Below are positions 26,426 through 30,510 of a DNA stretch of 43,988 nucleotides, piece after piece. Positions within the stretch are counted from its first letter, which is position 1. The number at the start of each line of letters is the position of its first letter. Under the pieces are notes generated by a model, which did no database searches, was not told where the DNA came from, and worked only from the letters and a program-made list of their open reading frames with translations. The position numbers and the translations under genes are program-made. Source of the stretch: an uncultured Bacteroidaceae bacterium. Its GTDB lineage: Bacteria > Bacteroidota > Bacteroidia > Bacteroidales > P3. The stretch is taken from the NCBI GenBank assembly GCA_964474745.1, contig CAYYUE010000001.1, positions 1 to 43,988 on the forward strand, read 5' to 3'.

Positions 26426-26635
26426 AAGTGTAGGTGCTTATTGCTGTATTTTATATGAATTTGTATTTCCTCCAATTCTTTTTTTTATCTGAGAATTGCC
26501 GTATAAAAAAGATGGATACAACATACCTTTTGTACTCCAGATCAATGAATATGGAAGAAGATCCGTTCATGATATATCGTGCAAGTAGTATATTTTTTCC
26601 ATATTCGTTTATTTATATTTTTCTTTATTCCGGTG

Positions 26636-26643
26636 CAAAGATA
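26636..26643 (-). promoter_or_regulatory. candidate -7 promoter box TATCTTTG for trkHA
   Basis: Reverse complement of CAAAGATA, 211 nt upstream of the trkH ATG. This implies a long leader. Confidence 0.4.
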
Positions 26644-26759
26644 CGATATGAAAACGAGAATAGAAGCAAAATAGAAAAAGAATGTTGTAAATAAGAGTTT
26701 GAACGAATCGTTGAAGTAGAGGAAATGCTGACGATAAATAGACTTTCATTTCTACACAA

Positions 26760-26927
26760 ATGGATAACCTGATACCCGCTAGCAGAAACTCCATCTTATA
26801 CAGGGCATGTTTGTCGGATGCGGGTAATTTTTCGGAGCGGATCGAACAAAAGATTTTCCATGCAGAAATTGTCGTCGATAGCGTATGGGTAGCAATCGAA
26901 GGAAAGCTCTATAAGAAAATGACCTAA
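26760..26927 (+). CDS. hypothetical small ORF (55 aa)
   Basis: ATG-to-TAA frame read by hand (MDNLIPASRNSILYRACLSDAGNFSERIEQKIFHAEIVVDSVWVAIEGKLYKKMT). No family recognised. Too short for the ORF track. Confidence 0.2.
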   Translation: MDNLIPASRNSILYRACLSDAGNFSERIEQKIFHAEIVVDSVWVAIEGKLYKKMT

Positions 26928-26939
26928 GGAGAATAGGGC

Positions 26940-27035
26940 ATGGATAGAGTGAAGGAGCAGATACAGGGAAATTGCAACCGTATCAAAGCCGAGGTGAAAC
27001 AGATTGTAGGAGATGAGATACAGCGTATTAAGTAA
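26940..27035 (+). CDS. hypothetical small ORF (31 aa) with Shine-Dalgarno
   Basis: AAGGAG at 26926-26931 lies 8 nt upstream of the ATG. Product MDRVKEQIQGNCNRIKAEVKQIVGDEIQRIK looks like a charged helix. Followed by the hairpin at 27067-27094. Confidence 0.25.
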   Translation: MDRVKEQIQGNCNRIKAEVKQIVGDEIQRIK

Positions 27036-27530
27036 TTAAAATCAGTTCATTGCTTCGCTCTATCTTCATTCTGCGTTACTACTAATGCAGAATGAAAATC
27101 ATGTTTTTAGAGACGAAAAAATCAAAAATCGAAAACTCGTGATCTTGTTAAATCCGGGTGAGGACGGCAGGTTAAGAATCGTTACCAGTATCGAACCGCA
27201 CGACAGACTGAATACGGTCGGTCCGACAAAAAGAATGCGGACAAGTTTCGAACCGCTAACCTGTGTGGCAACGTGTTTAAAAATTTCTTTAGCAAATTTT
27301 CTGCACAGTGTGAAAAACCTTCTCTCACTCGGCTTTATGCCGTCACACCAAGTGCTTTCGACAAAGTAGCGGGCTTCCCGGAGAAAATTATCGGCATTGA
27401 TCCTGATGACAAGATACTCGATCGCTACAAAGTAAAACCGGAGGCAGAGCCCGAAAAGCAATTCCAGAGACAACAGAAGCGAAAACCGCTTAGCCTATGG
27501 TCATTTCGGTATGTGAAGCGATATCGTTAT

Positions 27531-28109
27531 TTATTTTTTTCCGTACATACAGTTCGTCAGGTGATCGTTGATAAACCCGGAAGCTTGCAAGTGGGCGTAA
27601 CAAATCGTAGTTCCGAAGAATTTGAATCCCCGCTTTTTCATATCCCTGCTCATGGCATCGGATTCGGGAGAGGAGGCCGGAATCTCACTCAATGACCGAA
27701 AGGTGTTGATAATCGGTTTTCTGTCGGGAAAGAACGATAGTGTGTAGTCATAAAAACTACCGAACTCCTTTTGTATGGCAAGGAATAGCTTTGCATTGGT
27801 GATGGTCGATTTGATCTTCAGGCGGTTTTTCACAATGCCCTCAAACTGCATCAATCGTTCAACATCTTCATCGGTCATTTGCGCCACCAGTTCGGCGTCG
27901 AAATCACAAAAAGCTTTGCGATACCCCTCACGCTTTCTAAGGATCGTTATCCAGCTCAATCCGGCTTGGGCACTCTCCAGCACAAGAAACTCGAACAGCA
28001 TCTTGTCGTCGGTCACCAATTTTCCCCACTCTTGATCGTGATATTTCACATACAACTCGTCGGTTCCGCACCAACCACAGCGCCCGTTTATTATATCTTG
28101 CATAATCAT
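27531..28109 (-). CDS. tag: DNA-3-methyladenine glycosylase I
   Basis: RCGWCG, YHDQEWG and ESAQAGLSWITILRKREGYRKAF motifs align with the Tag family. The ATG at 28109 is preferred because the TTG at 28130 lies within the promoter box. Confidence 0.9.
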   Translation of the reverse strand: MIMQDIINGRCGWCGTDELYVKYHDQEWGKLVTDDKMLFEFLVLESAQAGLSWITILRKREGYRKAFCDFDAELVAQMTDEDVERLMQFEGIVKNRLKIKSTITNAKLFLAIQKEFGSFYDYTLSFFPDRKPIINTFRSLSEIPASSPESDAMSRDMKKRGFKFFGTTICYAHLQASGFINDHLTNCMYGKK

Positions 28110-28127
28110 ACTATTTGTAATACGTTG

Positions 28128-28135
28128 CAAAGATA
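28128..28135 (-). promoter_or_regulatory. Bacteroidota -7 promoter box TATCTTTG for tag
   Basis: Reverse complement of CAAAGATA, about 19 nt upstream of the ATG at 28109. Confidence 0.55.
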
Positions 28136-28228
28136 CACATATATTACTACAGTATACATTGTTTGCTTAAAATGTTCTTTTTGAGGTATTTCTAATATAT
28201 GGAAGGAACATATGTATAGTATTCTTAT

Positions 28229-28272
28229 AGTACTTCCGTTCATTTTTTCATGAAAAAATGAACGGAAGTACT
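28229..28272. repeat. perfect 44-bp palindrome (20-bp arms around CATG)
   Basis: AGTACTTCCGTTCATTTTTTCATGAAAAAATGAACGGAAGTACT is identical to its reverse complement. Confidence 0.95.
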
Positions 28273-28840
28273 AATATTGAGCATCGGCCTAAAATGGATC
28301 TCGCTTTTTGAATAGGTTTGTCATTTGATACAGAGAAATAACATCATGGAGATTGTATATTGCGGATCGAGAATTTTTGAGAATTTTGAAACCATAACCG
28401 AAAAAACCTCTTTTTTGTAAGAAAACGAAGGGCAAACCTCCGGGTGGAATAAAGGGCAAAGATTTCCCGATCGCGGTATGTGGAAATTCAAACTCTTTGA
28501 AATAGGGTGGGTGCTTCCGGATCCAATTTCATAGCAATTTCTTTTCATTATGATACATTCAGATTGTGGATTTATTTATTTTGTATACAATGACTTATAC
28601 AGATTTTCTAAAGAAATGATCAAAATAAATAGAGGAATACATATACGTCTTTTGCAAATTGAAAATTTCTCTTCGTTTAAGGATGTATCGTTGTATGAAA
28701 ATGAAGAATCGATGGCGTGCCGATTGCGAGCATCGTACGGAACGTAAAAACTGGATATTTGTTGAAAATGAAACAGTTGAATGATTTGTGTGCCGCTTCG
28801 TGAACTTGTGTATATATATAAATGAAATAGCCAAGTATGC

Positions 28841-29405
28841 AGATGGGGACTTGCTGGTGAACAGATGGGGACTTGCTGATGAACAGATGGGGACTTGCTG
28901 ATGAGCAGATGAGGACTTGCTGATGAGCAGATGGGGACTTGCTGATGAAGAGATGGAGGCTTGCTGATGAGCAGATGGGGACTTGCTGATGAGCAGATGG
29001 GGACTTGCTGATGAAGAGATGAGGACTTGCTGGTGAGCAGATGAGGACTTGCTGGTGAACAGATGGAGGCTTGCTGATGAAGAGATGGAGGCTTGCTGAT
29101 GAACAGATGGAGGCTTGCTGATGAACAGATGGGGACTTGCTGATGAACAGATGGAGGCTTGCTGATGAAAAGATGGGGACTTGCTGATGAACAGATGGAG
29201 GCTTGCTGATGAAGAGATGGGGACTTGCTGATGAGCAGATGGGGACTTGCTGATGAGCAGATGAGGACTTGCTGATGAAGAGATGGGGGCTTGCTGGTGA
29301 ACAGATGGAGGCTTGCTGATGAAGAGATGGAGGCTTGCTGGTGAACAGATGGAGGCTTGCTGATGAGCAGATGGGGGCTTGCTGATGAACAGATGGGGGC
29401 TTGCT
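28841..29405. repeat. tandem array, 25 full copies plus one 15-nt partial copy of a 22-bp unit (consensus AGATGGGGACTTGCTGATGAAC)
   Basis: Units counted one by one, head to tail with no spacers. 16 of 22 positions are invariant. Variation is confined to positions 6, 7, 9, 17, 21 and 22. Confidence 0.97.
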
Positions 29406-29544
29406 CCGGATCGATATACAGTTCCTAATCGTGAGTCTGTTGTTATATAAACAGCCTTATAAACCAACCTCTTCCTACAGGAATTTCACATTTTCGTACA
29501 TCACTAAAATAAGCTGGATTTTGCAGTCTGAAGAATAGTATAAT

Positions 29545-30510
29545 TTAGTTAGTGGTTAGCGGATGTGTAGCCTGATAAATAAATACCAACGCATCGATGT
29601 TTCGAGGAACTTGCAAGTCAAGGTATACACTTTCGATGGGGATTACACGCCCCTTTTTTACAGCCGATAAGTTGTTATAAGGATAGGTTTGTACGAAAGC
29701 TTCCGCATCTTCTTTCCGAACAAAAATATATTCCGGATCTGCTTTCAATAAGGCTTCTACGCTGTAACTCCATCCTGTAATGTTCGAGGCAATATTTTGA
29801 GTACCTGCAATGGAAAAAATATCGGTGATAAACGTATTGCCTCCCGCTGTAAAATTTCCTCCTTTTCCGAATCCAACCACGTAATAAACAGTTGGTTTAT
29901 GATTACTATCTGCTTTTAAGCTTGAAGTTATTTTTTGTACTTGATTTTGCAAGTTTTTGTTGAGTTTTGCGGCTTCCTCCTCGTTTCCGATAAGCATTCC
30001 TATTTTCCGGATGTTTTCAAAAAGAGCTTCGAAAGTTGCTTTTTCGCGTATGGCAACCAGAGGGATACCTGCTTTTGCAATTATGTTGGCAGTATTTTCG
30101 GGAACCATGGATCCGATGATTACCAAATCAGGAGCCAAGGCGAATAATTTTTCAACATTTAAATTATTGATTCCTCCGATACTCTCGATAGCAAGAGCAT
30201 CGTTAGGGTAGGTACAATAATCGGTTCTTCCTATTAGGCGTTCATTCCCATGAAGTGCAAAAATAATTTCCGTAATAGCCGGAGATACGGAAACAATACG
30301 TTTCGGATTTTTAGGAACATGTACTTCTCTATTATAGTCATCTACAAACAAATAGTTTTCTTTTTCGGGAAGTGAATTCGTATTTGTTTGGCATGCCGTA
30401 GCCAGTACAACCAAAAATCCGAAACGGAATAAGAGTGTATTTAATTTTTGTTTTATTTTTTGTGCTTGCAAGGGATCAAAAAGGTTTATTATGCGTTCAT
30501 GCCCCCACAA
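29545..30510 (-). CDS. ABC-type periplasmic substrate-binding lipoprotein (BtuF / iron-siderophore-binding family)
   Basis: Lipoprotein signal FLVVLATAC, RIVSVSPAITEI and DLVI motifs typical of PF01497-type binding proteins. The modelled TTG start overlaps the fabG 3' end. An in-frame TTG at 30471 would remove the overlap. Confidence 0.7.
   Translation of the reverse strand: MWGHERIINLFDPLQAQKIKQKLNTLLFRFGFLVVLATACQTNTNSLPEKENYLFVDDYNREVHVPKNPKRIVSVSPAITEIIFALHGNERLIGRTDYCTYPNDALAIESIGGINNLNVEKLFALAPDLVIIGSMVPENTANIIAKAGIPLVAIREKATFEALFENIRKIGMLIGNEEEAAKLNKNLQNQVQKITSSLKADSNHKPTVYYVVGFGKGGNFTAGGNTFITDIFSIAGTQNIASNITGWSYSVEALLKADPEYIFVRKEDAEAFVQTYPYNNLSAVKKGRVIPIESVYLDLQVPRNIDALVFIYQATHPLTTN

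Follow-up and report, generated by a model that had tools for sequence, protein, structure and literature searches.

A probably neutral, lineage-specific minisatellite of 22-bp units in an uncultured Bacteroidales bacterium

Genomic context

The window, that is, the whole stretch of DNA analysed here, is an entire NCBI contig of MAG type (43,988 bp) from an uncultured Bacteroidales bacterium, with a GC content of ~37%. Pfam searches assigned its genes to tRNA and L11 methyltransferases, PFK, an Fe-hydrogenase, a two-component system, Mfd, a TetR/RND efflux operon, NfeD, TrkAH, Tag, a btuF-like binding protein, FabG, a PagL-like protein, glycosyltransferases, a glycogen debranching enzyme and PurE, which is the ordinary chromosomal housekeeping content of a Bacteroidales bacterium. 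Cumulative GC skew is monotonic across the window, with no turn and no origin or terminus signature.

Between the stop codon of the btuF-like gene and the start of tag lies a gene-free gap of 1.44 kb, and it is in this gap that a long tandem array of a 22-bp unit is found. The order on the minus strand is fabG, the btuF-like gene, the array, tag, a 1.1-kb gene-free stretch and trkH; the distance from the array is 139 bp to the btuF-like stop and 737 bp to the tag ATG. No rep, par or recombinase gene had been seen next to the array when the DNA was read by sequence alone, and this holds for the entire contig, on which Pfam detected no rep, par, integrase, recombinase, transposase, IS, phage or cas genes. 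The features of the locus are as follows.

27531-28103, minus strand: tag (DNA-3-methyladenine glycosylase I), from Pfam and homologues; downstream of the array in the direction of transcription.
28104-28840, no strand: left spacer from the array to the tag start, 737 bp, 33% GC, with a weak terminator-like hairpin and a palindrome inside.
28128-28135, minus strand: TATCTTTG, a match to the Bacteroidetes-type -7 motif TAnnTTTG from a motif scan, ~25 nt upstream of the tag ATG.
28595-29467, minus strand: spurious 290-aa ORF with a TTG start, from the ORF list, stop counts, codon usage and lack of a homologue.
28841-29405, plus strand: minisatellite, 25 full units and a 15-nt partial unit of AGATGGGGACTTGCTGATGAAC, from TRF, a pattern scan, the unit table and composition.
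29406-29544, no strand: right spacer from the array to the btuF-like stop, 139 bp, 35% GC, from a terminator scan and comparison with a second strain (L018), in which 139/139 positions are identical.
29545-30471, minus strand: btuF-like periplasmic binding protein (Peripla_BP_2), 308 aa in L018, from Pfam, the L018 gene call and homologues; upstream of the array in the direction of transcription.

The consensus TAnnTTTG is the -7 promoter element of the Bacteroidetes type, and the match ahead of tag is a predicted promoter box, which indicates that tag would be transcribed independently of the array. Neither a sigma-70 scan nor a scan for TAnnTTTG detected a promoter motif in or beside the array itself. 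The left spacer contains a perfect 46-bp palindrome (28228-28273) and, past the array on the minus strand, the weak terminator-like hairpin (28442-28426); the count of terminator-like sites across the region equals the shuffle expectation, and the terminator scan of the right spacer found none between the btuF-like stop and the array. Short ORFs of both spacers gave no credible Pfam match, and neither spacer recurs on the rest of the contig or in the loci that were fetched.

This arrangement does not favour the earlier proposal of a slippage-prone contingency locus. No real ORF contains the array, the tag start codon is about 740 bp away, and tag has a predicted box of its own. Gain or loss of units would therefore leave every reading frame and promoter spacing as it is. 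The array is like the contingency loci of Neisseria and Haemophilus in that its copy number is probably unstable, but it differs from them in that the tract is outside real coding sequence and promoter elements and in that its unit measures 22 bp as opposed to 1-7 bp.

Structure and internal variation of the array

The sole array reported by TRF in the whole window spans 28840-29405, with a period of 22, 25.7 copies, 89% matches, 0% indels and a score of 817. Scanning the window with the degenerate unit AGATGRRGRCTTGCTGRTGA returned 25 exact matches and the partial copy at 3 mismatches, all in register, as against 0 expected from shuffles; outside the array no match occurs in the 43,988 bp. 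According to the unit table, the spacers between units are 0 nt long and 16 of the 22 unit positions are invariant (GCTTGCTG is an example of an invariant k-mer within the unit), with variation at positions 6, 7, 9, 17, 21 and 22 only. When the partial copy is counted, the cores are GGGGAC (10), GGAGGC (9), GAGGAC (4) and GGGGGC (3). The tails of the units are AC (10), GC (8), AG (6) and AA (1). TRF and the unit table therefore reproduce what had been read directly from the letters, namely 25 units plus a 15-nt partial copy, six variable positions and the core counts. A CRISPR array was also considered and rejected, with spacers of 0 nt between units and no cas genes on the contig.

The array has a GC content of 52% and is purine- and G-rich on the plus strand. 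Its edges are sharp: the adjoining 22-mers, read in register, agree with the consensus at no more than 2-9 of 22 positions. The trinucleotide GGA is present in 22 of the 25 units because the GGAGGC variant moves it by two bases, and this retention could be a hint of a motif.

The 25 units fall into 15 distinct types. Core haplotypes at positions 6, 7 and 9 form a simple mutational chain (GAGGAC - GGGGAC - GGGGGC - GGAGGC), and nearly every site pair among the core, position 17 and positions 21/22 fails the four-gamete test. The interpretation of the mosaic as a product of repeated exchange, made in the sequence-only reading, is strengthened by these 15 types among 25 units and by the four-gamete failures outside the core. 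No higher-order period stands out within the array.

The longest exact repeat inside the array measures 51 bp, and consequently an assembler with k >= 53 can cross the array unambiguously while one with k=31 cannot. The same limit implies an ascertainment bias, in that arrays that are not mosaic would drop out of short-read contigs. Both the total number of copies and the succession of units given here come from the source metagenomic assembly alone.

In terms of nucleic acid structure, 99 of 100 shuffles are more structured than the minus-strand RNA of the array (z = +2.75), whose plus-strand RNA shows mild structure (z = -2.4). Single-stranded DNA of six units forms no significant hairpins, and the unit has no internal dyad. 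Poor folding is to be expected of tandem repeats whose unit is not palindromic. Searches of Rfam 15 returned nothing at gathering thresholds and only sub-threshold chance matches at E <= 1. The array contains no canonical G-quadruplex motif because its G-runs are 18 nt apart. The word GCTGGTGA, present in six units, resembles the Chi site of E. coli; this candidate was dropped because, on the rest of the contig, sub-words of the unit show neither enrichment nor strand skew.

Turnover of the array in a second strain

A second assembly of the same species, from an independent sample and an independent assembler (Logan SRR36284598), provided two contigs, L018 and L046, which were found through the exact FabG and TrkA proteins of the window. 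Exact matching of the btuF-like, TrkH and Tag proteins contributed no further strain. Identity to the window is 99.53% over 7.9 kb for L018 and 99.66% over 13.7 kb for L046. The latter ends inside tag, short of the array, and the former reproduces the array junction and the first 4.1 units (90 nt) before the contig of this k=31 assembly ends. The array therefore exists independently of the source assembly.

The flank beside the array is identical between L018 and the window at 139 of 139 positions, whereas 12 differences occur within the first 90 nt of the array, every one of them at position 6, 7, 9, 17, 21 or 22. It follows that the array turns over far faster than its surroundings. Elsewhere, the difference from the window is about 0.4-0.5%, and the divergence of the array is roughly 30-fold faster than that of its surroundings. 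Two of the three full units of L018 are types absent from the window, one of them with a new T at position 9, and the two strains have no two-unit block in common. From this pattern, the divergence between the strains appears to consist of reshuffled unit variants rather than scattered new mutations. With spacer-less units in the 10-100-bp range, polymorphism next to conserved flanks and no protein-coding selection (see below), the array has the properties that characterize a minisatellite.

Coding potential

The 290-aa minus-strand ORF remains open across the array because the reverse complement of the unit has no stop trinucleotide: stops within the array number 0 in all three minus frames, as compared with 15-17 per plus frame. 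The unit length of 22 is not divisible by three. Codon usage of the ORF gave a log-ratio of -0.065, in comparison with 0.137 to 0.370 for 30 real genes of the contig, and Pfam returned no match. When the translation of the array was compared with a word-indexed collection of 5.8 billion proteins, neither a match nor a self-match was obtained; since the btuF-like protein returned itself, the ORF was never called by the gene pipeline of that collection.

A phmmer search against 1.84 billion representatives yielded 36 matches, of which eight were inspected, and all eight look like ORFs running through 22-bp or 11-bp arrays, with a period of 22 or 11 aa. The best match (P0262) was traced to a 17-copy 22-bp array of TGCCGACCTCCATCTGTTCACG on an AT-rich long-read contig (L057). 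That array has 13 nt in common with one unit variant of the window, which is put down to chance because the library is so large. The 290-aa ORF is an artefact without protein selection. This agrees with the sequence-only reading, in which the stop-free ORF was not regarded as a selected protein, and the codon usage, the lack of a homologue and the arrays behind the inspected phmmer matches now document it.

Distribution and relatives

The unit scan covered 185,579 GTDB species genomes, JGI metagenomes and IMG/VR. Single matches to the degenerate unit numbered 17 in the GTDB genomes, 26 in the JGI metagenomes and one in IMG/VR, which is about the estimated chance rate. The 43 genome and metagenome matches were read, and all lie in unrelated non-repeat sequence, several of them recurring in the same conserved coding motifs. 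No tandem array of the unit was found in the GTDB species genomes, JGI metagenomes or IMG/VR, and TRF detected no tandem array around two Bacteroidia matches of the scan. In addition, the whole 1.4-kb spacer gave no blastn match to plasmids and phages.

The nearest homologues of the btuF-like protein are 58-64% identical. Two such relatives, at 60-64% identity, keep the fabG/btuF pair, followed by a spacer of ~190 bp and then by unrelated genes, and both the array and tag are absent at this locus in the two. Homologues of Tag (~190 aa) show 85-93% identity; the Tag homologue context that was compared (P0003, L047-L052) is not syntenic and does not contain the array. Across the genomes and metagenomes scanned, the array thus appears to be restricted to one lineage. 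A plain minisatellite had initially been named as a fallback explanation, and it is the one that fits best.

Origin of the array

We consider the array to be a non-coding, lineage-specific and neutral minisatellite (VNTR) in the gene-poor spacer between the btuF-like gene and tag, with a probability of about 0.7. Its kind, the bacterial minisatellite, is already known, and the sequence of its unit is new. As judged from the pattern of variants, a 22-bp unit would have been amplified and then continually rearranged by slippage or unequal sister-strand exchange, together with short patches of gene conversion. Approximately 7-8 old point mutations at positions 6, 7, 9, 17, 21 and 22 would have been copied along with the units, and the variants may have been recombined at breakpoints that fall within the invariant CTTGCTG and in the interval from position 17 to positions 21-22. 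The outcome of such a process would be 15 unit types in a mosaic, with the other 16 positions uniform. Transcription of the array is probably passive only and confined to the minus strand, by read-through from the fabG and btuF-like genes, as no terminator is predicted ahead of it.

In the sequence-only reading the variation was described as locked to six positions, but this is not evidence of constraint. For ~8 mutational events, the second strain counted, the probability of falling on six or fewer of the 22 positions is 0.33, and the six variable positions therefore need no selective explanation. If recurrent mutation rather than exchange had produced the combinations within units, one would need to assume hot spots or constraint, and the 16 invariant positions together with the intermediate variant frequencies are also compatible with selection on the unit. 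No function is needed to explain the array.

Non-coding or incidental arrays of 10-100-bp units are familiar from MLVA VNTR loci and from the 40-bp dru repeats of SCCmec. Such arrays change through slippage or unequal exchange, and close strains are polymorphic and carry the variants in strain-specific orders. Compared with most of these loci, the window array is longer (25.7 copies) and more mosaic (15 unit types), and it comes from an uncultured lineage that has no typing context.

Alternative explanations

In Porphyromonas gingivalis, the BrickBuilt repeats consist of spacer-less 23-nt units in 1 to 22.8 copies and are always intergenic (Klein et al. 2015; PMC4596501). Their variation is found at few unit positions, several of them A/G, with expansion, contraction and reshuffling from strain to strain and with spurious hypothetical ORFs (PMC4596501). 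BrickBuilt is defined by its unit AGACCATAGTATCCTCTCATATG, taken here from Additional file 1 of PMC4596501, by a leader and a tail with IS5-type TIRs (GAGACCTTTGCA / TGCAAAGGTCTC) and by 19 dispersed copies per genome (PMC4596501). The window array is similar in its head-to-tail units of 22-23 nt, its intergenic position on a Bacteroidales chromosome, its copy number of ~23 or so, its few variable positions, its reshuffling from strain to strain and its spurious ORF. It is different in that the unit has 22 nt and not 23, with a best cyclic alignment score of 5 to the BrickBuilt unit as against a shuffle mean of 6.2; in that no leader or tail was found; in that one copy was seen on the 44-kb contig, compared with 19 per genome; and in that its edges lack a Bacteroidetes promoter motif. 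The array behaves like the minisatellite part of BrickBuilt and like VNTR loci in general, and is not a member of the BrickBuilt family.

An unrelated element of the same design is unlikely but deserves to be weighed. The array would then be the internal minisatellite of a multi-copy, non-autonomous element (a BrickBuilt-like MITE), possibly with outward promoters acting on its neighbours. The architecture, close to that of BrickBuilt in P. gingivalis (PMC4596501), is in line with this, as are the sharp-edged island of 52% GC in a spacer of 33-35% GC, which imported DNA would show, and the break in synteny with relatives at this locus. However, neither BrickBuilt TIR (GAGACCTTTGCA / TGCAAAGGTCTC) has a match at <=2 mismatches within 7 kb of the array, only weak and unconvincing inverted repeats of 10-19 nt surround it, and neither flank is repeated on the contig or in the fetched loci. 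Further, the unit is no closer to the BrickBuilt unit than shuffles are, the 44-kb contig has no transposase or IS, and the collections scanned hold no second array.

A selected repeat platform in the broader sense is similarly improbable. It would be either a species-restricted mobile analogue of BrickBuilt present at many loci, or a multivalent DNA- or RNA-binding array in which selection would maintain 16 positions and leave copy number and the order of variants unconstrained.

As regards RNA, one strand could be expressed as a functional repetitive transcript that titrates an RNA-binding protein or complementary RNAs. The low structure of the minus-strand RNA (z = +2.75) would leave it accessible as a single strand; the plus strand has GGA/GGAGG in most units (GGA in 22 of 25) and the minus strand is C-rich with CCUCC/CCCC in every unit; and no terminator is predicted from the btuF-like stop to the array. 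Nevertheless, this role is quite improbable. Low self-complementarity is expected of any non-palindromic tandem repeat, the scans detected neither an Rfam family nor, within the array or beside it, a promoter motif of the Bacteroidetes type, the order of units differs between the strains, and no other lineage among the genomes and metagenomes scanned has a relative of the array. To our knowledge, CsrA-type partners are not known in Bacteroidetes.

The period of 22 bp corresponds to about 2.1 helical turns, and a protein-binding DNA array with one site per two turns (an iteron, a centromere-like site or a platform for nucleoid proteins) would be consistent with this spacing and with the 16 positions that are invariant in both strains seen. 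Like iterons and the parC/sopC centromere repeats, the array is built of direct repeats of a unit near two helical turns; unlike them, it has no cognate rep or par gene, no plasmid context, no spacing between units and a far higher copy number. The suggestion of an iteron or centromere array, made on first reading, finds no footing on a contig with no rep, par or mobile-element gene, and with no match among plasmids and phages. The contig likewise has no partition, plasmid or phage gene, its monotonic GC skew gives no origin or terminus signature, the unit has neither a dyad nor hairpin potential, and its sub-words are not enriched elsewhere on the contig. We regard a binding array of this type as very unlikely.

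A collapsed, expanded or chimeric repeat would be a familiar artefact in a metagenome-assembled contig of MAG type, since repeats invite errors and the k=31 assembly ends partway through the array. Such an origin is highly improbable, however, as the junction and 4.1 units were reproduced from an independent sample by an independent assembler and as a longest exact repeat of 51 bp leaves a path that standard k-mers and reads can resolve. Finally, a genuine gene for a protein of 22-aa repeats, or a contingency gene of the frameshift type, is barely conceivable: the 290-aa ORF is indeed open across the whole array, but it has a TTG start, a unit length not divisible by three, a codon-usage score lower than that of any of the 30 real genes, an N-terminus and a C-terminal tail without recognisable protein features, no Pfam match and no gene call, and its inspected phmmer matches (8 of 36) are artefacts of DNA arrays.

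Significance

The array illustrates how assemblies at k=31 break at such loci and how false 'hypothetical protein' ORFs arise from them, and it indicates that variation at few positions of a repeat need not mean constraint. The finding would gain in importance if the array were a binding platform or one copy of a dispersed element, as BrickBuilt, the single described case of mobile elements with a minisatellite in Bacteroidales, would be extended to a second, unrelated lineage and a second unit. As a plain minisatellite, which is the reading that we prefer, it is mainly of practical interest, and provides a ready-made hypervariable strain marker for an uncultured Bacteroidales species.

Motifs and period-22 arrays

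On the plus strand of the 22-bp array (28841-29405), units carrying the GGAGGC core variant read GGAGG-N7-ATG followed by a 14-codon mini-ORF, a spacing that resembles that of a Shine-Dalgarno sequence ahead of a start codon. In addition, six array units contain GCTGGTGA, which matches the E. coli Chi sequence at 7 of 8 positions. Both the Shine-Dalgarno-like arrangement and the Chi-like word are probably coincidental. Sub-words of the unit were not enriched on the rest of the contig, outside the array.

The best phmmer match to the translation of the array originates in another 22-bp array, on a long-read metagenome contig (L057):

L057 3290-3663, 22-bp array of unit TGCCGACCTCCATCTGTTCACG, 17 copies, 99% uniform

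This array forms an island of 58% GC in surrounding DNA of 24% GC, and the contig is probably not bacterial. Its unit and the GGAGGC variant of the window unit have the 13-mer CTCCATCTGTTCA in common, an overlap that we take as chance. L057 also provides a further example of a 22-bp array giving rise to a false ORF with a 22-aa period.

Period-22 repeats were also found in a relative at 60% identity (L056):

L056 2488-2543, 10707-10793 and 14575-14629, three short intergenic period-22 arrays (2.5-4 copies, 74-76% match; example unit CCCAACGGCGTTGGGAAACCTC)

At least the GC-rich units among them (CCCAACGGCGTTGGGAAACCTC, CGCGACGGCGTTGCACCATAGT) resemble palindromic repeats of the REP type, and none of the three arrays is related in sequence to the window's unit.

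Intergenic sequence on either side of tag

A palindrome lies approximately 125 bp from the tag start, on its upstream side:

28228-28273, perfect 46-bp palindrome, 23-nt arms TAGTACTTCCGTTCATTTTTTCA/TGAAAAAATGAACGGAAGTACTA, loop of 0 nt

Its folding energy as single-stranded DNA is -21.4 kcal/mol (z = -10.4). With no T-run after it on either strand, the palindrome does not qualify as a canonical terminator. An Rfam search with the palindrome returned only miRNA-hairpin matches at chance level.

A second long gene-free stretch separates the tag stop from the start of trkH:

26426-27530, gene-free, 1.1 kb
26670-26636, minus strand, Bacteroidetes promoter-like TTTG...TATCTTTG, approximately 210 nt upstream of trkH

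ORFs of this gap gave no credible Pfam match, and the gap is 99.0% identical in a second strain of the species (L046).

Possible exceptional conservation or horizontal transfer of tag

Short-read contigs bearing tag end inside the gene or 60-800 bp downstream of it (L046 1-117; L047-L052), and such breaks occur in this species and one other. Tandem repeats were not found at the ends of these contigs. The breaks probably reflect an assembly-graph tangle arising from very high tag conservation among co-occurring Bacteroidales.

The GC content of tag (27531-28103) is 46%, compared with 37.6% for the contig. Its protein is 85-93% identical to Tag in many Bacteroidales (Parabacteroides, Bacteroides fluxus); the closest homologues of its btuF-like neighbour are ≤64% identical. 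The gene is absent from this locus in relatives. Nucleotide identity to the tag of another organism is 84.8% and ends at the CDS boundaries, and the neighbours there (XusAB/PepSY/CorA) differ from those in the window. Either tag is exceptionally conserved or it came by horizontal acquisition.
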